NCBI GenBank assembly: GCA_964478065.1
Contig: CAYZGP010000003.1
Location: forward strand, 1,684 to 65,683
Origin: an uncultured Pirellulaceae bacterium
Lineage (GTDB): Bacteria; Planctomycetota; Planctomycetia; Pirellulales; Pirellulaceae
Length of the DNA stretch: 64,000 nt
Reading direction: 5' to 3'
A model generated the notes under the pieces. The model ran no database searches and was not told where the DNA came from. It saw nothing but the letters and a program-made list of their open reading frames with translations. Made by a program: the position numbers and the translations under genes. How positions within the stretch are numbered: the first letter of the stretch is position 1; every line of letters begins with the position of its first letter. This document shows, piece by piece, positions 1 through 14,500 of the stretch.

Positions 1-1845
1 AATGCCAACGCTGTTGTCGGTGCGGCCATCGCGATTAGTATCGTTGTTTGCAAGACCGCTTTCGACGATGTCAAATACGCCGTCGTTGTCGCTGTCCAGA
101 TCAAGCCGATCAACATATTCGTCTCCGTCGGTGTTGACTTGGCCGAATCCGTCAATGTTTACGTAAGCACTGTTGACTCCATCGTTTTCTGCATAGGTCG
201 CTGCGTCATCATCGTTGGGCGCGATGTAGTCTGCGGTTGTTTGAGCTTCGATGTTGTCAGTGATGCCGTCATTGTCACTATCGAGATCCAGATGATCGGC
301 GATGCCATCGTTGTCACTGTCGGTTCCATTCTCGGCAGTCGTGATCGCATTAGTGAAGTTACTTTGGCGGAAACCAAATCCGAATCCAGCCGTGCTGGCC
401 GCATCGTTCAGTAGCTCGACCTGGAAACGGCTGGTATTCAGGAAGTTCAACTGGATGTCGTCATCAGGATTGTTGACGGTACCACGGAAGCGAACAAAGT
501 CGTCTTCGATCTCGGGAGTGAAACTGCCGCCATCTTCCAACGTATAAGAGTGCAGCGTGGAAAGGTTCGCACCAATTCCTTCGATGCGTTTGACGCTATC
601 GCCGCTTAGCAACGTGTCATCGACATCCCCGAGTCGGATGCTTGTCGTGTTTTCAACAGCCGTTCCATTGCCCGCTCGAATCAACTCAGCAATATCGCCC
701 AGATTGTTTGCTGCTGCAAAATCGGGATCGTCAGGGCTGAAGAATGCGAATTCGAGGCGCACACGTTCTTCGTCACCCAGACGCTCTCCAACACCGCGGA
801 ATTCGATCTTGGGCGATTCGCCCGGACGGGTTGTTTCGGCATTAATCTGAGCGCCGTCGGCAATATCGACGACCGTCACGGCAATCAGATCTTCCCCATC
901 GTTCATGCTGTAAACGACCACATCGCCGACTTCGAGATCGACTTCCCGGTCGTTGTCCGGGTCATCCCCATCCTCGACAACGATTTCACCATTGAAGGCG
1001 TTGGTTGTCGCAAATCCAAAGATCGCATCGGCTCTGAATTCTTTAAAATTCTGGTGGCTAAACTGGCCCGCACTGGCACCCAACCCTTCATCGGCATCCA
1101 GGATTCCATCGTTGTCATCGTCGAGATCGTCCTCGTCGTCCACGCCGTCACCGTCGGTGTCGGCCAAGGTTCCAAGATAAGACTCCGCGGCCAGTGATTG
1201 CGTCTCCACGACACCAACATTCAATTCCAAGTCCCAGTCACCCCCCAGCTCCGCCGCACCAGTCAAATCATCAGACGCCGCGACATCTGCACCGGTAATC
1301 GCGCTGATCGATTCGACAAACTGCTCGCCTTCTGCGTTACCCGCTAGGTCGCAACCGTAGAACAAGAGGTCGGCGTCTTCGGTAAGTGCGTCTGACCAAC
1401 TTGCCAACTGATCAACGTACTTGTTTAGGTTTTCGCTGTTCAGATTTGTGTTACCGAGAAAAACTTCTCCCTCATCACCATGCGAAATGATGTGAATCGA
1501 ATCGTACTTGACCGTTGATTCAGAGAGCAACTGTGTTATCTGTTCGACACCATCGGTGTTCCCATCAAGGATACGAACTTCAAAGTTCCCTTCTGGTTTT
1601 GCCTCAAGAATTTCGGCAAGTAATTGCTCGCTATTCTCAACACCAGCGTCAACGAAAATGAGCTCGCGTGGCCCACGCAATTCGGCTTGTTGCATGGGTT
1701 GAACATGCGCTGGAATTGGATCCGTTGCGTCGTTCTGAGGCAATATAAAGGTTGCATCCGGAACACCGTCGAAGAGAACTCGATCTTCAAGCGATTCAAA
1801 AAGCGAACGGAAAACGAAACCACTATCTTGATTTGGTAAGTGCAT
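1..1845 (-). CDS. Giant secreted/surface protein, 3'-partial: LEPRxLL-like N-terminal motif, DUF4347 domain, TSP3-like acidic Ca-binding repeats
   Basis: Not in the ORF track because it runs off the left edge. Manual translation from ATG 1845 gives [27 protein letters not shown]...[17 protein letters not shown]...[15 protein letters not shown] (DUF4347 hallmark IFVD...HIISHG). Later come [44 protein letters not shown] and [16 protein letters not shown]. The frame is open to position 1. Confidence 0.88.
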
Positions 1846-2392
1846 GCATCTGAGCCTGAAAAGAGATTTGAAAAGCGCAATGGTTGCGGGTGCGCATGTG
1901 TCGCTGGAGCGATAACGACTGAGATATCGAGATTCGTAGAGTGGTAGCTAGAGAGTGTTATCCCTACTGGCGAGACGTTGGTTGCCCATGCTGGAGTCAC
2001 AAAAAACCATGATCAACGACTGACCATTTTCAAACGTTCAATTGCTCCAAGCTTTTAGTTGACGAGAACAATGTTGGTTTACCGCAATCTGGCCTCAATG
2101 TGTCGGGCGAACCTTTTTCAAAATGAATAGATGTTGCTTGTTAGAAGAGCGCGAATCATCTGCCAAAACAAGCGAGTTCCGTTTTCCCCTTTTCCTAAAA
2201 GTTGTGGCGACACGACTTCTAAAGTGTGCTTGCCTTCGTCGCTTCGGTTGGCTGCTTATCGTCTGCCGTTGGATCGGTTTACCCTATTCCTGATGTTTTT
2301 TGGCTACGACTTGTTCGGATTGTGCCGAATACGACTGTGACTCATGTCGTCAAGCTGCCCAACCCGCAATTCATTCTTGTCCAAGAAAAGTA

Positions 2393-4234
2393 ATGTATTC
2401 ACAAATTTCCTCGAGTCGCTGTCGATCTCCGTTTGGATATCTGCTGCTATCCATGCTGACGCTATTGGTTTCAATGCAGACTTGTCTAGCACAACAAGCC
2501 GAATTTAAAAGCTTCGATGCAAACGCTATTTATAGGCAACTTGACGCAAATTCTTTTGCTTCACAACAAACCACGTTAATGCCGTCTTGGTGGGACAGCC
2601 ACGTCGCACGATCACTTCGTGATCAGCAACCAATTCCGACGGACGTTCACACGCTGCTGTTTTTGGCAGTACACAATTCCAATCAAATCAAGATTGCAAA
2701 ACGCGACCCTTTGATTCGTGAGACTGCCGTTCAGGAAGCCGATTCAAATTTTGATTGGGTGAGATATCTCAATACGGCTTGGAATGATACTAGCGAACCG
2801 ATTAGTAGTACGTTGACCGCTGGCGGCACAGCAACTCGGTTCAACGACAATATCTTTCAAGCCACAGGCGGTTTGCGGCGACTGACTCGCTATGGCGGCC
2901 AACTAGACATCAGCCAGCGATTCGGGTGGCAAGATAACAACTCAACATTCTTTGTTCCCGACAATCAAGCAACGGGACAGTTCACTGTTTCTTATACGCA
3001 TCCCTTGTTGCGGGGCAACGGATTTGCGTACAACAACAGCATCGTTTTCTTGGCCAAAATCGACACTGAAGTCGCGGAGCAGGAGTTCATGGCCGCTCTG
3101 CAAGACGAATTGCTCGAAGTGACACGCGGCTATTGGGCACTTTATCTGGAGCGAGCGGTACTGGCTCACCAGATGCGACTTTTTTTAAAAACGCAGCAGA
3201 TCTTTCAAACGCTTGAAGCCCGGCAAGCCGTCGATACTCAACGGACACAATTGATAACTGCTTCAAGTGCTCTGGAAAGCCGTCGAGCAGATCTGATTCG
3301 GGCACGTACTGCTGTGACCAACGCAGAAACGAGATTGCGAGGTATGATCAATGCTCCAGAACTGCAAAACTCGGATCAAGCCGAATTAATCCCATTCGAA
3401 ACTCCTTCTATAAGCCTCTACGAAACTGACTTGAATACAGAAATTCAGGCAGCGCTACAGAATCGCCCAGAAGCCAAAGCAGCAATCAAACAAGTAAAAG
3501 CTGGATCGACTCGGTTAGGAATTGCCCGACACGAATTGTTGCCAGCGCTAAACCTTGTTACGCAGGGATTCGCCAATGGACTTCGAGGGGATAGCGATTT
3601 TGGACAAGCCTTCACAGATCAGTTCTCCGTGGGCCGGCCAAGCTACTCCGTCGGATTGCAATATGAGTTTCCGGTTGGAAACCGACTCGCCAAAGCCCGC
3701 TTATGCCGGCGGCAACATGAACTTGCACAGTTGCAGGATGAATACGCTCGAGCATTACAAATCATAACAACTGAAGTAGATATCGCAGTTCGCGAGCTTC
3801 GCACTTCCTATCTGGAAATCAATGCCAAAAGCAGAGCTCTCGCGGCCGCAGAAGCCGAAGCCAACACGATTGAACAACGTTGGTTAAGAATGATAGACGG
3901 TAACGGAACGGGCGGGCTCAATCTCGAATCGTTGCTGCGATCGCAAGAACGAGTCACCGAAGCCGAACGCGAGTTTGTGACTTCGATTCTGACTTACAAC
4001 TTGGCAATGATCAATCTGAAACGGAGTAACGGCACGCTGCTCCAAACAGAAAACGTGCAGGTGTCTTCCAGTTGTGAAAACGGATGTAAGTCAATCGAAC
4101 TTGATAAAGCCGAACCAGCTGCCGAGCAACCAATCTATCAAGAGGTTGTCCCAAATAGTGCAAGCGGTGTGATTGTAGATGAAACCGTGATTCAAAGTGC
4201 ACCTCAAGGAGCGATTCCTTATTTTCGCCAATAA
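2393..4234 (+). CDS. TolC-family outer membrane channel, paralogue 1
   Basis: OEP-type helical repeats with a signal peptide (MYSQ...LLLSMLTLLVSMQTCLA/QQ). ATG 2393 is preferred over TTG 2300. Adjacent to MFP genes. Confidence 0.85.
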   Translation: MYSQISSSRCRSPFGYLLLSMLTLLVSMQTCLAQQAEFKSFDANAIYRQLDANSFASQQTTLMPSWWDSHVARSLRDQQPIPTDVHTLLFLAVHNSNQIKIAKRDPLIRETAVQEADSNFDWVRYLNTAWNDTSEPISSTLTAGGTATRFNDNIFQATGGLRRLTRYGGQLDISQRFGWQDNNSTFFVPDNQATGQFTVSYTHPLLRGNGFAYNNSIVFLAKIDTEVAEQEFMAALQDELLEVTRGYWALYLERAVLAHQMRLFLKTQQIFQTLEARQAVDTQRTQLITASSALESRRADLIRARTAVTNAETRLRGMINAPELQNSDQAELIPFETPSISLYETDLNTEIQAALQNRPEAKAAIKQVKAGSTRLGIARHELLPALNLVTQGFANGLRGDSDFGQAFTDQFSVGRPSYSVGLQYEFPVGNRLAKARLCRRQHELAQLQDEYARALQIITTEVDIAVRELRTSYLEINAKSRALAAAEAEANTIEQRWLRMIDGNGTGGLNLESLLRSQERVTEAEREFVTSILTYNLAMINLKRSNGTLLQTENVQVSSSCENGCKSIELDKAEPAAEQPIYQEVVPNSASGVIVDETVIQSAPQGAIPYFRQ

Positions 4235-4671: not shown

Positions 4672-6600
4672 ATGTCTAATGCTGTTGCTGCCAACAGGAA
4701 TGCTGGGCCACAAAAGCGCGCCGCAACAACGCGCCGAAATAGCCGTTTAAAGCGTTCGTCTTTGAACGCTTGGCAACATCAAATTCGGAACTTCGAGAGC
4801 CTCGCGTCCAGGTTAACTGAGCAACAGATACGCGATCGAGCCCAGGAGATCCGAGAATCTTATGGCGAACACCAACGGGAGAAACATCTCTTTGAATTTG
4901 GTGGATTAATTGCGGAATCAGTTTTCCGAGCCAACGGTTTCCGCCTCTATGATGTTCAAATAAAAGCGATGGCCGCAGCGACGACCGGGGCCATTGTGGA
5001 AATGCAAACCGGTGAAGGCAAAACCATTGTCACCGGCGCAATCGCCGCAATTCAATCGCTGACCGCACCGTCGGTTCATGTTAGTACGACCAACACCTAT
5101 TTAGCGGGTCGAGATCTTGAAAGCCTGACCGGAACATTTGACCTGCTTGGCATCAGTTATGGTTTGCTTCCAGAGGAAAACGACGAAGCTGAATCGCGTC
5201 GTGTCTACACCAAGCAAATCGTTTATGGCCCAGGTTATCAATACGGGTTTGATTATCTTCGCGATCAAATGTATCTCCGCGACAATCGTCAGTCGAAGCT
5301 TGGTGTGGCGACCATCAACCGGATTCGAGGGCTTGATCCTTACAAGAAACTTATCCAACCACGAGATCATCATGTAGCGCTGATTGACGAAGCCGATAGT
5401 GTGATGATTGACGAAGCGATGACTCCGTTGGTCATCAGTTTGCCCACCAAGGAAACGGAAGATCCGACCCCTTATTTGATCGCCAAGAAAATCGCATCGA
5501 ACTTTACTGAAGGAATCGAATACACGATCACGTTTCCTTCAAAGAAAATTGATGTTACCGACAAAGCCAACCAGCTTGCTCATGATGAGATTGCCAACAA
5601 GCACGATTTGCATCTCGCCCGGCCATGGCGAGTTTACATCGTCAATGCTTTGCGAGCCGAAAAAGCGTTTTTACGGGATGTCGACTATGTTGTCGTAGGC
5701 GGCGAAGTCCAGATCGTTGACCAGTACACTGGCCGCATTCTTCCAGATCGAAGTTGGCAGGATGGACTTCACCAAGCCGTTGAAGCCAAAGAAAACGTTC
5801 CCATCCAACCCGGTCGTGAGTCGACCACTCAGGTTACGCGCCAACGTTACTTGCAAATGTACGATCAGCTTGCTGGTTTGACCGGAACAGCGGCTTCGGT
5901 GAGCAAGGAATTTCAATCGATTTATAATTGCGGCGTTGTCGAAATCCCGACCAATAAAAAGTGTCTTCGAAAGATTTTAAAAACACGATTTTTTGCAAGC
6001 CTTGAAGCCAAATTGGCTGCCATCACCGAGGACGTTTTAAAGCGGCATGCAACTGGCCAACCGATTCTGGTCGGTACAAAAACGATTCGCGAAAGCATCG
6101 AAGCCTACGATTGCCTGGTCGCAAAAGGACTGAGTCCAACGTTGCTTAACGGCGTACAGGATCAAGAAGAAGCCGATATCGTTGCTCAAGCCGGTGCCGC
6201 CGGTTCCATTACCATCGCGACCAACATGGCAGGACGAGGAACGGATATCAAAATCAGCCCTGCGTCGCTTGATGCAGGTGGTCTGCATGTCATTGGAATT
6301 AGCCCCAACAGTTCCAAACGAATCGATCGTCAGTTGGTTGGAAGAGCAGCACGACAAGGCCAACCTGGATCAGCACAGTTTTTTGCTGCCGCAATGGACC
6401 CAATTTTTGTTGATAACGAATCACCGCTTTGCAAACAACTTCGTCGGCGAGCCAACTCAAAAGGTGAAACGGGTGACTTTTCACGAGACCTTAGTGCACT
6501 CCAATCTCTAATTGAAGCTCGTAATTTCAAACAAAGACAAGACATGATCCTTCGCGATATTTGGATGGACTCAGTTCGCGAATCAATTGAAAAAGACTAA
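4672..6600 (+). CDS. secA: Secondary, C-terminally truncated SecA-family ATPase (SecA_DEAD + preprotein-binding + helicase C); not the housekeeping copy
   Basis: Motifs MQTGEGKT, IDEADSVMIDEA, VQIVDQYTGR...WQDGLHQAVEAKE, GLTGTA, GQPILVGT, IATNMAGRGTDI, GGLHVIG, RIDRQLVGRAARQGQPGSAQFF. Only 642 aa, ending just after IEARNFKQRQDM. Confidence 0.92.
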   Translation: MSNAVAANRNAGPQKRAATTRRNSRLKRSSLNAWQHQIRNFESLASRLTEQQIRDRAQEIRESYGEHQREKHLFEFGGLIAESVFRANGFRLYDVQIKAMAAATTGAIVEMQTGEGKTIVTGAIAAIQSLTAPSVHVSTTNTYLAGRDLESLTGTFDLLGISYGLLPEENDEAESRRVYTKQIVYGPGYQYGFDYLRDQMYLRDNRQSKLGVATINRIRGLDPYKKLIQPRDHHVALIDEADSVMIDEAMTPLVISLPTKETEDPTPYLIAKKIASNFTEGIEYTITFPSKKIDVTDKANQLAHDEIANKHDLHLARPWRVYIVNALRAEKAFLRDVDYVVVGGEVQIVDQYTGRILPDRSWQDGLHQAVEAKENVPIQPGRESTTQVTRQRYLQMYDQLAGLTGTAASVSKEFQSIYNCGVVEIPTNKKCLRKILKTRFFASLEAKLAAITEDVLKRHATGQPILVGTKTIRESIEAYDCLVAKGLSPTLLNGVQDQEEADIVAQAGAAGSITIATNMAGRGTDIKISPASLDAGGLHVIGISPNSSKRIDRQLVGRAARQGQPGSAQFFAAAMDPIFVDNESPLCKQLRRRANSKGETGDFSRDLSALQSLIEARNFKQRQDMILRDIWMDSVRESIEKD

Positions 6601-6701
6601 CAAGCTTTCAGGTGTAGTTGCAAAAACGAAATCCGATACGAACCCATTCCTCATTTCAACGTTGCACTTTTTATCCCCCAACCCAGAAACGGAAATTGAC
6701 A

Positions 6702-7610
6702 ATGAACCCCACTCAACCGCGAAATGTTTCGTTCGCCGTTCTGATGGTCATGACTTTTTTAAGTGCGACCGTTGTCAGTGCCACAAACTCTTTTGCACAG
6801 AATCTTCACAATGGTCGGATCACGAAGAGTTTTACCGAGCCGATAGAGAAAAGCATCGCCGCCAGTCCCGAAGTCGGCATCATCGCCGAGTCGTTTGTCA
6901 AAGAAGGCGATCGAGTTCGCGTGGGAGACCGATTGTGTGCAATCAACCACAACGTCCTCGCCGAGTCGTTGGTGATCGCGGTGGCTCGATCTGAGTCAAC
7001 GTCACGACTTGATGCCGCTACTTCCCAAATGGAGCTGGCTAAATCTCAACTTGATGCCATCGAGTCTCTGATCAAAGGCGGACATACGAACAAGTTCGAG
7101 GTCGAGCAAGCAGGTGCCGAGTATCAGAGAGCGTTTGCTGAATTCAGAGCTGCCCAAGACGAGTTGAAACTTGCGAAACTCGAAGTCAAACGAATTCAAG
7201 CTCAAATTAACGATCGCATCATCACCAGCCCAATCAACGGCTTTGTCACCGAGATCCACAAACAGCTTGGCGAAAACATCTCCAATAACGAACCGCAGTA
7301 CGCAACGGTTGTCCGGGTGGATGAATTGAAAGTTCGTTTCTATCTGGATTCAGCGACCTTGCGCTCGTCGAAAGTCGGTGACACAGTATTGGTAAAGGTT
7401 GGAAATTCAAAATTGCGAAAGCCAGCCGTTGTGACTTACGTTTCTCCAGTTATTGACCCAGACAGTGGACTCGGGGCACTGCACTGCAAAATTGATAATC
7501 GGGATTTGCAGATTCAAAGCGGAATTATTTGTTTTTGGAACGAAGACTCAAATTCCGAACCGACTTCTGCCGTCCAGGCATCACGAAAATCTCTACAGCT
7601 TAATCGTTGA
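6702..7610 (+). CDS. Efflux RND/HlyD periplasmic adaptor (MFP) with Sec signal peptide
   Basis: Lipoyl halves (AASPEVGIIAESFVKEGDRVRVGDRL; ITSPINGFVTEIHKQLGE), coiled-coil hairpin and beta-barrel VTYVSPVIDPDSG. ATG 6702 gives signal MNPTQPRNVSFAVLMVMTFLSATVVSA. Confidence 0.85.
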   Translation: MNPTQPRNVSFAVLMVMTFLSATVVSATNSFAQNLHNGRITKSFTEPIEKSIAASPEVGIIAESFVKEGDRVRVGDRLCAINHNVLAESLVIAVARSESTSRLDAATSQMELAKSQLDAIESLIKGGHTNKFEVEQAGAEYQRAFAEFRAAQDELKLAKLEVKRIQAQINDRIITSPINGFVTEIHKQLGENISNNEPQYATVVRVDELKVRFYLDSATLRSSKVGDTVLVKVGNSKLRKPAVVTYVSPVIDPDSGLGALHCKIDNRDLQIQSGIICFWNEDSNSEPTSAVQASRKSLQLNR

Positions 7611-9764: not shown

Positions 9765-11948
9765 ATGCTAAACGAAAAAACATTTGAATTCAGCCAGGCT
9801 CGCCTTCGGCTCAAAGACAGTCTTCGGTTCACGATGCGTCAAAGTGGCGATGCGGTTGAATATTTGGTCGAAGACGAAGTCACGGGGCGATTCTTTCGTG
9901 TTGGGTTACCTCAGTATACGTTTCTGACGATGTTGGACGGTCGACGAACGGTAAGTACCGGACTGATGAAGACCGCGACGCTGTTGCGCGAACATGCCAT
10001 CGATGAAACCGAAGCTGCCAATCTTTGTAAATGGGCAATCGAATCGGGACTTGTCGAATCGGAAACTGGTAACTCAACGGCTCGGCGAATTGAGCAACAT
10101 GAGTTGCAGCAAAAACAAAAGATGATGTCGTATCTCAATCCTATGATGATGCGAATTCCGCTTTTCAATCCCGATCCAATCGTCACCACTCTCTCGCGAT
10201 TCATTGGTTTCGTCGTCAGCCCGATCGGCGCTGTTATCTGGTTGACGGTTTGCCTCTATGGATTTTTTCAGCTGGCAAACAACTGGGACGCGTTTTACAC
10301 GAACCGCGTCAACTCGTTCGGTGCGGCTGATTTCGCTTGGATCGCATTGACATGGATCGTGCTGAAATTGATTCACGAAATTGCCCACTCATTAGTTTGT
10401 AAACAGTTCGGCGGGCGCGTTCAGTCGTGCGGGATGTTATTCCTGTTGATGATTCCAATGCCCTATGTCGATGTGACCAGTTCATGGCGATTCGACAATA
10501 AATGGAAACGGATTTTGACGTCCGCTGCCGGAATGATGAGCGAAGTTTTTCTCGCAGCGATCGCGTGTTGGGTGTGGGCAACCAGCTCTCCGGGGCCACT
10601 TCAGTATCACGCCGGCAACGTCATCATCTCCGCGACGTTGCATACTTTGTTGTTCAATATCAACCCGTTGATGCGGTTCGATGGTTATTACATGTTGGCC
10701 GACTGGTTGGAGATTCCCAACCTCTCGACGCACGGAAGAAGCTGGCTCAAAGGCGTTTTCAAACGAGCTTATTTTGGCAACAAAGCCCAACCGCTTAAGG
10801 AAACAGGATTTCGCGGACTGGCCGTGAGAGCTTACGGTATCATGGCGATGATGTGGTTTTTTACCATCGCTATCGGCCTGTCGCTTGCCGCATCGAGTTT
10901 CATGGAGGGCTTTGGGTTGTTGGTCGCCGCGATCGGATTGGTACTGTGGGTCGGGGTTCCGTTATATAGTCTTTGCAAGTACACCGCCGTTGGCACCAAA
11001 ACAGAAAAACCCAATCGGCCATGGTTTGCTGGGGCAATGACACTCACGCTGCTGCTGGTAGCGGGATTTCTTTATTGTTGTCCGAGTCCTTCGGTCGTTT
11101 CCGCACCGGTTGTGATTGACTACGAACCGCTTTCGGTTGTCCGCGCCAATTCAACCGGATTTGCGAAGTCGATTCATGTGGTCGATGGACAAAGCGTCAA
11201 CCAAGGCGACCTGTTGGTTACTTTGGAAAATCCTGATATCGAACACGAGCTAAAATCTTTGATGATCGACATCAAGATCTCACAACTACGCTCCAATACT
11301 CTGTTTAGTCAGGGCGAAATTAGCCAAGTTCAATTGGAGCAAAAATCGCTTGATTCGATGTTGAAGCGAAAGTCCGAACTGGAAACGCGAATCGCAGAGC
11401 TTAAAATTTACGCTCCACAATCGGGTAACGTTTTGGCGCGTGATCTTGAATCGCTAACTGGAAGGCACTTTACTCCTGGTACTGAAATTCTCTCCATTGC
11501 AGAACCGGGTGCACTTCACGCGATTGCATTGACTCGCCAAACAGATATCGAGTGGGTGGCCGAAAACCCGGAAGCCGATATTGAGCTAGTGGTTTGGGGG
11601 CGGCACGAAAACGATTTGCTTGTCGGCAAGATCAAGCATATTAATCCTCGTGCCCGAGACGATTTACCTCACGAGGCATTCGCGGCTTCAGTTGGTGGCC
11701 CATTGGCTGTCGTAAGTCGGGGGCAAGTTGAAGAGCTAGAGGACCAAAAAGATGAAGGCGAGATGATGCTAACCCACCCCCGTGTTCCAGTCGAAATCGA
11801 ACTCAAAAAAGAAGATCGAGTGAGCTTGGTCGCAGGACAAACAGGGCAACTGATTGTCCGCTCGCGGAACCAAAACATGGGCAGCTACCTGGCTAATAAC
11901 CTGGTCCGGTTCGTTCGCGAAAACAATTTCCGAACGCACGGGCTATAA
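9765..11948 (+). CDS. PqqD/RRE-like domain + M50 (site-2) metalloprotease-like membrane domain + HlyD/lipoyl adaptor fusion
   Basis: HEIAH (HExxH) inside a TM segment and NINPLMRFDGYY (NPDG-like), several TM helices. C-terminal VRANSTGF...VVDGQSVNQGDLLVTLEN and IYAPQSGNV. N-terminal YLVEDEVTGRFFRVGLPQYTFLTMLDG wHTH-like segment. Confidence 0.85.
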   Translation: MLNEKTFEFSQARLRLKDSLRFTMRQSGDAVEYLVEDEVTGRFFRVGLPQYTFLTMLDGRRTVSTGLMKTATLLREHAIDETEAANLCKWAIESGLVESETGNSTARRIEQHELQQKQKMMSYLNPMMMRIPLFNPDPIVTTLSRFIGFVVSPIGAVIWLTVCLYGFFQLANNWDAFYTNRVNSFGAADFAWIALTWIVLKLIHEIAHSLVCKQFGGRVQSCGMLFLLMIPMPYVDVTSSWRFDNKWKRILTSAAGMMSEVFLAAIACWVWATSSPGPLQYHAGNVIISATLHTLLFNINPLMRFDGYYMLADWLEIPNLSTHGRSWLKGVFKRAYFGNKAQPLKETGFRGLAVRAYGIMAMMWFFTIAIGLSLAASSFMEGFGLLVAAIGLVLWVGVPLYSLCKYTAVGTKTEKPNRPWFAGAMTLTLLLVAGFLYCCPSPSVVSAPVVIDYEPLSVVRANSTGFAKSIHVVDGQSVNQGDLLVTLENPDIEHELKSLMIDIKISQLRSNTLFSQGEISQVQLEQKSLDSMLKRKSELETRIAELKIYAPQSGNVLARDLESLTGRHFTPGTEILSIAEPGALHAIALTRQTDIEWVAENPEADIELVVWGRHENDLLVGKIKHINPRARDDLPHEAFAASVGGPLAVVSRGQVEELEDQKDEGEMMLTHPRVPVEIELKKEDRVSLVAGQTGQLIVRSRNQNMGSYLANNLVRFVRENNFRTHGL

Positions 11949-12407: not shown

Positions 12408-12697
12408 TTTTCGTACATGCTAACGCAGATGCAATTGTTCAGAGGGTGCGGGTATTGAGGGTCAAAGAGGAGATTACTCCTAATCGAAAATGATAGGTGG
12501 TTGAGTTTTTCGAATGTAGCGCTGATGTTGAATGCAGCTGTTCGAATGCCGTGATACATAGAGGAATTGGCAAATCTATCACAAGCAAATTGACGATTAG
12601 AATCCTACCTCAAAAGCTCCGGGGTTTAGCACTCGTCAAATTCAGATGCTTACTCTTCTCACCGAACTCAACAAACTTTTTCCCACCTTGGAATTTT

Positions 12698-14500
12698 ATG
12701 AAAATGCGAATTCTAATTGCCGCCATAGCAGCGCTCGGTTGTGTTTCCGCTTCTGTGGTCGCTCAGCAACCACAGTTCAAGCAATTTGATGCAGTTGATG
12801 TGTTTCGTCAGATGGATAGTAGTGTCCAGGAGCAACCTTTGGTCCCGTCTTGGTGGGACACCAACGTTGCTCAGTCGTTAAGAGATCAACCGCCAATTCA
12901 AGCAGACGTTCATACACTGCTTTATTTGGCGGTTCATCACTCCAATCAAATCAAGATTGCCAAACGCGATCCGCTGATTCGTGAAACGGCGATTCAGGAA
13001 GCTGACTCAAATTTCGATTGGGTTCGCTATCTCAATACAGCCTGGAACGATACGAGTGAACCGATCAGCAACACGTTGACAGCGGGCGGAACGGCGACTC
13101 GATTTGTTGATAACGTCTTTCAGGGTACTGGTGGAATTCGCCGGAACACTCGTAGTGGTGGTCAGCTTGATATTAGTCAGCGATTCGGCTGGCAGGACAA
13201 CAACTCAACGTTCTTCGTTCCAGACAATCAAGCGACCGGCCAATTCACTGTTTCTTATTCTCATCCTTTGCTTCGTGGCAACGGCGTGGCGTACAACACG
13301 AGTATCGTTTTTCTCGCACAAGTTGATTCCGAGGTTGCCCAACAGGAATTTCTGGCGACGTTGCAAGACGAGCTGTTGGAAGTCACTCGCAGCTACTGGA
13401 CTCTATACCTTGAGCGTGCTGTGTTGGCTCACAGAATGCGGTTGTTCTTGAAGACTCAGGAAATTTACGGCACGCTTAAGGCACGCCAAACGGTTGATAC
13501 CCAGGGGACGCAAGTGATCACGGCAGCAAGTGCCTTGGAAGGCCGTCGAGCTGACTTGATTCGTGCTAGAACGGCTGTGACCAATGCCGAAACTCGACTG
13601 CGTGGTATGATCAATGCCCCGGAACTACAAAATTCAGATCAGGCAGAGTTGATCCCGGTTGAAATGCCTTCAACGCAATTTTTTCGACCTGATTTACAAG
13701 CTGAAATTCAAACGGCGCTTCAAAATCGCCCGGAAGTCATGGCCGCGATCCGTCAAGTCAAAGCTGGATCGGTACGGTTGGGAGTCGCTCGACATGAATT
13801 GCTTCCTGCACTTAACCTCGTCACACAGCTTTATAGTAGTGGCCTGCGAGGTAACAGCAATTTTGGTGGTGCGTTTACTGATCAATTTTCTGTTGGAAGG
13901 CCAAGCTATTCTGTTGGGCTTCAGTACGAGATGCCAGTAGGAAATCGCCTTGCCAAAGCTCGACTTTGCCGCCGGCAACATGAACTTGCCCAGTTGCAAG
14001 ACGAGTACGCCCGTGCGTTGCAGATCGTTCAAACCGAAGTTGACATTGCAGTTCGAGAACTCAATACGGCGTATTTGGAAATTGGTGCTAAAAGCCGAGC
14101 TTTGGCAGCAGCCGAAGCAGAAGCTAACACAATCGAACAGCGCTGGTTGCGAATGGTTGATGGAAGCGGTACAAGCGGACTCAACCTCGAGTCGCTATTG
14201 CGTTCGCAAGAGCGAGTCACTGAAGCCGAACGTGAATACGTAACATCGCTTCTGACTTATAATCTTGCTATGATCAATCTCAAGCGAAGCAATGGAACTT
14301 TGCTTCAGACAGAAAACATTTCGGTATCCAATGATTGCGAGAATGGTTGCAACGGTATCCAGGTTGACAAACTTGGCCCGGCTGCGACAAACCAACCGGC
14401 CATGATCGGTCAGGATCAGTTGCCGGCCGAAGAAAGCATCATGGAAGTCAGTTCTCTTCCGCAAAATGATGAACTTGAAGCAAGCTACTTTCGCAGATAA
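12698..14500 (+). CDS. TolC-family outer membrane channel, paralogue 2
   Basis: Long stretches identical to paralogue 1. Signal peptide MKMRILIAAIAALGCVSASVVA/QQ from ATG 12698, preferred over GTG 12497. Confidence 0.87.
   Translation: MKMRILIAAIAALGCVSASVVAQQPQFKQFDAVDVFRQMDSSVQEQPLVPSWWDTNVAQSLRDQPPIQADVHTLLYLAVHHSNQIKIAKRDPLIRETAIQEADSNFDWVRYLNTAWNDTSEPISNTLTAGGTATRFVDNVFQGTGGIRRNTRSGGQLDISQRFGWQDNNSTFFVPDNQATGQFTVSYSHPLLRGNGVAYNTSIVFLAQVDSEVAQQEFLATLQDELLEVTRSYWTLYLERAVLAHRMRLFLKTQEIYGTLKARQTVDTQGTQVITAASALEGRRADLIRARTAVTNAETRLRGMINAPELQNSDQAELIPVEMPSTQFFRPDLQAEIQTALQNRPEVMAAIRQVKAGSVRLGVARHELLPALNLVTQLYSSGLRGNSNFGGAFTDQFSVGRPSYSVGLQYEMPVGNRLAKARLCRRQHELAQLQDEYARALQIVQTEVDIAVRELNTAYLEIGAKSRALAAAEAEANTIEQRWLRMVDGSGTSGLNLESLLRSQERVTEAEREYVTSLLTYNLAMINLKRSNGTLLQTENISVSNDCENGCNGIQVDKLGPAATNQPAMIGQDQLPAEESIMEVSSLPQNDELEASYFRR

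Follow-up and report, generated by a model that had tools for sequence, protein, structure and literature searches.

The window analysed here is a stretch of 64,000 nucleotides from contig CAYZGP010000003.1 of an uncultured Pirellulaceae bacterium. It encodes a SecA-like protein of 642 amino acids, called short SecA in the following, in an operon with HlyD-type adaptors, TolC-like channels and a fusion of an M50 protease to an HlyD adaptor (M50-HlyD). The short SecA appears to be an old paralogue that has kept the motor, the polypeptide clamp and the first scaffold helix and has lost the wing domain, the two-helix finger with IRA1 and the C-terminal tail. We propose that it is the cytoplasmic ATPase of a type-I-like, envelope-spanning exporter that has no ABC transporter and bypasses SecY, and we put the probability of this reading at about 0.5. 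The architecture of the protein, its conservation, its single origin, its genetic linkage and its co-occurrence with M50-HlyD are matters of observation.

The short SecA ends within the first scaffold helix

The domain content was analysed with Pfam. SecA_DEAD (PF07517) matched residues 23 to 415, SecA_PP_bind (PF01043) residues 268 to 371 and P-loop_SecA (PF21090) residues 433 to 529 and a second stretch, and the search gave no match to SecA_SW (PF07516) in the protein. In an alignment of 39 homologues, the Walker A, DEAD, TGT, TNMAGRGTD and GRxxRQG motifs were invariant, and so were the DYV and GLHQAxEAKE signatures of the preprotein cross-linking domain (PPXD). The initial annotation of this DNA had located the open reading frame (ORF), the Walker A and DEAD motifs, the preprotein-binding region and the helicase motifs, and its coordinates were exact (Table 1).

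The end of the protein was mapped on solved SecA structures. In a phmmer search against the PDB, residues 48 to 639 aligned to residues 36 to 610 of the approximately 800 residues of Bacillus subtilis SecA, and Thermotoga maritima SecA was aligned as far as residue 654 of 871. The alignments to the solved SecAs stop within the first scaffold helix, and the broad SecA model NF006630 was covered only at positions 9 to 612 of 789. The segment IEARNFKQRQDM comprises residues 614 to 625. Translation stops after residue 642, 17 residues further on, in line with the initial annotation, which had also placed the end of the protein at the start of the scaffold helix. The protein does end in this helix, but not at its start. 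Approximately 38 residues of the long helix are kept, including the counterpart of a conserved motif of canonical SecA.

The genome also contains a canonical SecA on contig C122. When the two proteins were aligned, 'LRDIWMDSVRESIE' of the short SecA corresponded to 'LEYDEVMDEQRKRIY' of the canonical copy. The wing domain, the helices of the two-helix finger/IRA1 and the C-terminal zinc tail of the canonical SecA have no counterpart in the short SecA. Pfam, the PDB alignment and the alignment of the paralogues therefore all bear out the earlier claim that the wing domain and the SecY-engaging two-helix finger are absent.

An AlphaFold2 (AF2) model was calculated from the 39 homologues and reached a predicted local distance difference test score (pLDDT) of 84 and a predicted template modelling score of 0.80. 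The last element of the model is a single helix of residues 604 to 641, ending just past the conserved motif D-x-W-M-D-x-V-R-x-x-I-E. In this region near the C-terminus, D629, W631, M632, D633, V635, R636 and I639 were invariant among the 39 homologues. At the other end of the protein, residues 1 to 25 had a pLDDT below 50, and the N-terminal 30 or so residues were basic in every case, with a mean net charge of +5.8 across the homologues. To judge from its composition, such a tail would be suited to bind acidic lipids or a partner.

The best superpositions of the model were obtained with the SecY-bound, substrate-engaged SecA structures 5EUL and 6ITC (template modelling score 0.84, root-mean-square deviation about 3 Å), whereas apo SecA structures superposed at about 0.67 to 0.70. 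In apo SecA, the PPXD rests against the wing domain. The likeness of the model to SecY-engaged SecA may simply reflect the missing wing domain and is weak evidence. E. coli SecA-N68 (5K9T) and mycobacterial SecA2 structures were also among the fold matches.

An insertion of about 20 residues, SKLGVATINRIRGLDPYKKLIQPRDHH, was observed in the first nucleotide-binding domain (NBD1) just ahead of the DEAD motif, at residues 208 to 233 (window positions 5293 to 5370). It is confined to a subgroup with TolC and adaptor genes in the operon, which comprises the copies on C3, the contig of the window, and C15. G211 and Q229 are invariant in the insertion, I218 and G220 nearly so, and the model has a pLDDT of 62 to 65 there.

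The short form is a genuine gene

A short protein could also result from a frameshift, an assembly error or decay, or from a split SecA gene with the C-domain encoded elsewhere, and the genome assembly is fragmented into 218 contigs. We consider such an artefact highly improbable. All five short paralogues of the genome share one end point, which is also that of 28 sequences drawn from several classes. The same three domains recur, and SecA_SW is missing, in the best 120 homologue clusters of the database; most of these are about 600 to 690 residues long and some are shorter partial sequences. Compared with an orthologue of 98% identity, the ratio of nonsynonymous to synonymous substitution rates (dN/dS) was 0.055. 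Downstream of the ORF, no SecA wing or scaffold sequence was found in any frame. The next ORF starts within 100 nucleotides and encodes an HlyD-type adaptor with a signal peptide, confirming the membrane fusion protein named in the initial annotation, which had cited it against a restored full-length C-terminus. A six-frame search of the whole genome detected SecA_SW nowhere except in the canonical gene on C122 and in an 805-residue paralogue on C45. Since SecA_SW is found only in these two other genes, no frameshift restores the C-terminus. The six-frame search, together with the shared end point of all paralogues, rules out a frameshift and a split gene.

In other genomes, apparent fusions of the short SecA to frames of 915 to 1307 residues were encountered, which turned out to be mere long open frames upstream of the gene.

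The short SecAs form a separate clade

Seven genes with a SecA_DEAD domain were found in the genome, one encoding the canonical SecA of 1233 residues, one the 805-residue protein and five the short SecAs of 625 to 657 residues. The genome has a single SecY, and no SecY2 was found in it. All 31 sampled genomes of the same order, covering 13 genera, contain one canonical SecA and between one and six short copies. Among 100 further genomes, sampled evenly over the phylum, 15 have short copies. In a maximum-likelihood tree, 28 sampled short SecAs formed one clade (approximate likelihood ratio test, SH-aLRT, 99). The canonical SecAs encoded in these genomes fell outside. We conclude from this single, separate clade that the truncation is old and arose once. 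The 805-residue paralogue is the sister of the short clade in the tree.

With its intact ATPase motifs and its PPXD, the short SecA retains features of canonical SecA, yet the models for canonical SecA are missed. TIGR00963 and NF009538, with cut-offs of 800 and 814 bits, scored 498 and 479, and the best stretch covers only positions 2 to 473 and 16 to 491 of these models. The SecA2 models TIGR03714, TIGR04221, TIGR04397 and NF012136 also stayed below their cut-offs, with scores of 372 against 930, 375 against 725, 446 against 1085 and 337 against 1100.

The 805-residue protein (G000:C45:880-3297, locus L002) is a third kind of SecA. It has the DEAD domain, the PPXD and the second nucleotide-binding domain (NBD2), and its SecA_SW match is split into two short stretches with the middle of the wing missing. 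A frame comparable in length occurs in only 2 of the 31 related genomes, and the neighbouring genes are uninformative.

Two matches in metagenome-assembled genomes of Candidatus Omnitrophota (L064:6095-12859 and L065:205-3048) were rejected as members of the short family, as they are giant proteins whose embedded SecA domains lie a long way from the N-terminus. The protein of L064 has more than 2255 residues; its SecA domains include SecA_SW and are preceded by about 1060 residues without a Pfam match.

The short SecA is linked to the M50-HlyD fusion

Each of the five short SecAs of the genome adjoins an M50-HlyD fusion. The same holds for almost all lineages sampled, where a second HlyD fusion, an adaptor and TolC genes are usually present as well and tagged giant proteins are often encoded alongside. 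The gene order TolC, SecA, adaptor, HlyD fusion, M50-HlyD is kept in 57 related loci, with SecA identities down to 40%. Loci from other classes of the phylum are arranged as HlyD fusion, M50-HlyD and short SecA, with M50-HlyD and the short SecA directly adjoining or overlapping each other. About 17 short SecA genes were counted in the 16 sampled genomes that have the short form, and for 14 of them the distance to an M50-HlyD gene is no more than about 2.5 kb. When 101 genomes were compared without regard to their relatedness, M50-HlyD was present in 16 of 16 genomes with a short SecA and in 7 of 85 without (Fisher p = 1.5e-13). The initial annotation had suggested coupling to machinery other than SecY, and this context, in a genome with one SecY, strongly supports it.

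Among the proteins encoded by the operon (Table 1), HlyD_3 and HlyD_D23 matches were found in three and OEP in two by Pfam. Apart from the short SecA, no ABC or other ATPase domain was detected in the six operon proteins with Pfam and NCBIfam. A scan of the operon for promoters and terminators gave nothing above the shuffled expectation, and a search for small ORFs in the two long intergenic gaps yielded nothing convincing.

Table 1. Positions of the short SecA, its parts and the neighbouring genes in the window
Feature	Position (nt)	Strand	Basis
Start of giant DUF4347 protein, upstream of and divergent from the operon; LEDRVLF tag at residues 19-25 (nt 1771-1791)	1-1845	-	Candidate cargo
TolC-like outer-membrane factor 1	2300-4234	+	Pfam OEP, E = 4.8e-23
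Short SecA paralogue, 642 residues, NBD1-PPXD-NBD2 and first scaffold helix	4672-6600	+	Pfam, NCBIfam, PDB alignment, AF2 model, fold matches
N-terminal tail of about 33 residues, variable in sequence, strongly basic, disordered in the model	4672-4770	+	AF2, charges of homologues
Walker A motif GEGKT, residues 114-118	5011-5025	+	Invariant in 39 homologues
Walker B/DEAD motif, residues 239-242	5386-5397	+	D239, E240 and D242 invariant in 39 homologues
PPXD, residues 268-371, with invariant DYV (D338, Y339, V340)	5473-5784	+	Pfam PF01043, E = 1.3e-23
NBD2/IRA2, the second motor domain; motifs V (TNMAGRGTD) and VI (GRxxRQG) invariant	5968-6471	+	Pfam PF21090
Terminal helix, residues 604-641, retained portion of the long scaffold helix	6481-6594	+	Secondary structure of the model
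HlyD-type periplasmic adaptor with signal peptide; likely start ATG near nt 6699	6618-7610	+	Pfam, NCBIfam
HlyD adaptor with cytoplasmic N-terminal extension of about 370 residues	7671-9578	+	Pfam
Intramembrane M50-like HExxH protease fused to HlyD adaptor, conserved partner of the short SecA	9765-11948	+	Pfam, NCBIfam, related loci
TolC-like outer-membrane factor 2, paralogue of factor 1	12497-14500	+	Pfam

The TolC-like genes at either end of the operon are closely related paralogues (phmmer E about 1e-301), and a third relative is found in the operon on C15. For the extension of the second HlyD protein, Pfam gave no GAF match; Kamneva et al. (PMC4452313) call the equivalent region a GAF domain.

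Tagged giant proteins are the candidate cargo

The DUF4347 protein encoded upstream of the operon carries the motif LE-x-R-x-L-L/F, here called the tag, near its N-terminus, and no hydrophobic signal peptide was found in this N-terminal region. Its C-terminus lies beyond the contig. In the genome of 6.2 Mb, about 22 credible proteins with an N-terminal tag were counted, and such proteins flank four of the five short-SecA loci. A tagged protein is also present in the examined flanks of 25 to 28 of the 57 related loci, and tagged proteins adjoin the short SecAs of two further clades (L074 and L071). With the tag model NF012209, scores over the cut-off were obtained in 10 of the 101 genomes, every one of them a genome with a short SecA (p = 4e-10).

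PF07595 was tried as a detector of the tag and proved too weak, all matches but one being under the cut-off and scattered. The contigs C3, C15 and C155 each start inside a giant tagged gene next to a short-SecA operon; on C3 this is the gene at the left end of the window. Evidently, the repetitive sequence of these giant genes interrupts the assembly and leaves the cargo genes incomplete.

Possible modes of action of the short SecA

In the export reading, the likely cargo would be the neighbouring giant proteins that have the tag in place of a signal peptide. The unfolded chain would be gripped in the clamp between the PPXD and NBD2 of the short SecA and fed N-terminus first into an inner-membrane assembly of M50-HlyD and the other HlyD proteins. 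There, the tag would be clipped by the M50-HlyD assembly, and the chain would move onward through the tube of adaptor and TolC without SecY. The parts of the exporter would be the M50-HlyD fusion, the HlyD fusion with its cytoplasmic domain, the plain adaptor and the TolC-like channels. The short SecA would take the place of the nucleotide-binding domains of a peptidase-containing ABC transporter (PCAT), and the M50 domain that of its C39 peptidase. The ATPase activity of the short SecA, its physical docking, the cargo, the direction of transport and the independence from SecY are what we infer here. More tentatively, the short SecA, M50-HlyD, the second HlyD fusion, the adaptor and TolC might make up a distinct class of secretion system, in which a SecA-type motor in place of an ABC transporter would move tagged giant proteins through both membranes in a single step, with the N-terminus leading. 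It is also conceivable, as a speculation, that this transport is co-translational; ribosome contacts of E. coli SecA have been mapped to the segment of the scaffold helix that the short SecA retains.

Several points weigh against this proposal. Proteases of the S2P/M50 type are not known to act as protein-conducting channels, and the canonical push mechanism is unavailable without the two-helix finger. Our literature searches found no experiment on any member of the family. The co-occurrence statistics over the 101 genomes ignore phylogenetic relatedness, and the short tag hidden Markov models (HMMs) are insensitive. Of the 23 sampled genomes with M50-HlyD, 7 are without a short SecA. In the genome studied here, four M50-HlyD genes have no SecA in cis (C7:85677-93242, C83:18031-26310, C6:24065-27387 and C7:6179-8434). 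Moreover, in two genomes without a short SecA (G069 and G075), tagged genes next to M50-HlyD were detected by a motif search. Because of these genes, the tag has to be regarded as tied to the M50 module no less closely than to the short SecA. Because M50-HlyD modules exist without a short SecA, some of them beside tagged genes, the short SecA is not universally required by the module. Either such modules may be driven by another energy source or by the canonical SecA, or the short SecAs may act in trans.

An earlier result, that the tag tracks the short SecA and not M50-HlyD (10 of 16 genomes against 0 of 7, p = 0.0075), was withdrawn when the motif search found tags missed by the HMM in the two SecA-less genomes. 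The proteins concerned, with LEERIVLDAA (L097:11819-13255) and LEDRVLFEAA (L098:1-3619), are encoded beside M50-HlyD, and NF012209 missed both. One of the SecA-less modules on C7 is a complete operon of TolC, adaptor, HlyD fusion and M50-HlyD with a gap of 250 nucleotides at the place of the short SecA. No ABC gene adjoins the SecA-less M50-HlyD modules in six further genomes.

The involvement of SecY has to be considered in this context. The short SecA might act as a SecA2-like accessory ATPase on the single SecYEG, alone or together with the canonical SecA, and M50-HlyD and TolC would then remove the tag and carry the protein across the outer membrane, making export a two-step process. E. 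coli SecA-N68 is a constitutive ATPase that binds signal peptides and binds SecYEG with high affinity, but it does not translocate (PMC5603524). By analogy, the short SecA may still make use of SecY. The resemblance of the model to SecY-engaged SecA and the fold matches to mycobacterial SecA2 would fit such a role, and the M50-HlyD modules without a short SecA may have the canonical SecA as their motor. However, the tags are without a hydrophobic core of the kind that opens SecY, all NCBIfam SecA2 models score far below their cut-offs, and the tight and often overlapping linkage is to M50-HlyD, not to sec genes. We consider the two-step route unlikely. The initial annotation had suggested that the paralogue cannot use SecY canonically. 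This is plausible for translocation but does not follow for binding, as SecA-N68 shows. Likewise, the suggested deregulated ATPase is an analogy to this engineered protein, and for a foldase no support was found.

Alternatively, the short SecA might be no translocation motor but use ATP in the cytoplasm as a holdase, unfoldase or targeting factor, keeping the giant tagged proteins unfolded and presenting their leader to the M50 protease, or it might gate this protease. In favour of such a role, the polypeptide-binding PPXD is kept whereas the finger that inserts into the channel is gone, modules without a short SecA exist, as would be expected if it were an accessory factor, and there is often one short SecA beside each cargo gene. 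Yet the complete two-domain motor with its clamp is under strong constraint, and in SecA this arrangement stands for processive movement along the chain. The proton gradient would then be the sole energy source of the module. We judge a role of this kind to be about as improbable as the SecY route. We consider the export reading, in which the short SecA would itself drive the chain into the M50-HlyD assembly, the most likely of the three.

If this proposal is correct, SecA-type motors are not bound to SecY, and bacteria would have combined a SecA fragment with an intramembrane protease and TolC-type parts into a trans-envelope exporter for giant surface proteins, outside the numbered secretion types. 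The system would also show, as an experiment of nature, what the SecA motor is capable of without the two-helix finger. The family is widespread, and the link to the tag offers concrete candidate cargo to assay.

Comparison with known systems

As comparative genomics, the finding is already known, and the mechanism is a proposal. The initial annotation had offered the idea as new. The architecture, the neighbourhood and the role as an ATPase replacing an ABC transporter were published by Kamneva, Poudel & Ward (PLoS One 2015, PMC4452313). They describe 'secondary SecA_DEAD domain proteins' that have lost the wing/scaffold domain, form a clade separate from canonical SecA and have Peptidase_M50/HlyD, GAF/HlyD, HlyD and sometimes OEP proteins as conserved neighbours. 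The protein was proposed to be the ATPase of a type-I-like system, and the family was also reported from Verrucomicrobia, Proteobacteria, Nitrospirae and Chlorobi. For Methylobacterium extorquens AM1, the paper gives an operon of four genes (META1p2399-2402). The domain make-up, the conserved locus and the separate clade of the short SecA all agree with this family, and nothing essential differs. Apart from this study, our literature searches yielded one paper that cites it but is unrelated, and no experimental follow-up. The present analysis adds the five copies in one genome, the occurrence in all sampled genomes of the order and the linkage to giant proteins with the tag, which the sections of the paper considered here do not mention. 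It also adds the exact end point in the scaffold helix, the structure model, the quantified co-occurrence and a check of the link to the tag with its limits.

The engineered E. coli SecA-N68 (residues 1 to 609, 5K9T) is similar in that it consists of NBD1, PPXD and NBD2 without the wing, the IRA1/two-helix finger and the C-terminal tail. It differs in that the whole scaffold domain is removed, whereas in the short SecA some 38 residues of the scaffold helix remain, together with the conserved motif, and a basic tail replaces the canonical N-terminus. In Gram-positive bacteria and mycobacteria, the accessory SecA2 is likewise a second SecA, used for few substrates, and some SecA2 proteins have a reduced wing. 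However, SecA2 keeps the scaffold domain and the two-helix finger and works with SecYEG or SecY2, whereas here neither the finger nor a SecY2 is present.

Type I secretion systems and PCATs share with the short-SecA operon an adaptor and a TolC-type channel and, on the export reading, a leader-cleaving protease within the inner-membrane component and giant cargo that does not use Sec. They differ in the ATPase, since the ABC transporter is absent here and a SecA-type ATPase of superfamily 2 is found instead. The protease of PCATs is a C39 cysteine protease, in contrast to the intramembrane zinc enzyme of the M50 type encoded here, and RTX cargo carries its signal at the C-terminus, whereas the tag of the candidate cargo is at the N-terminus.

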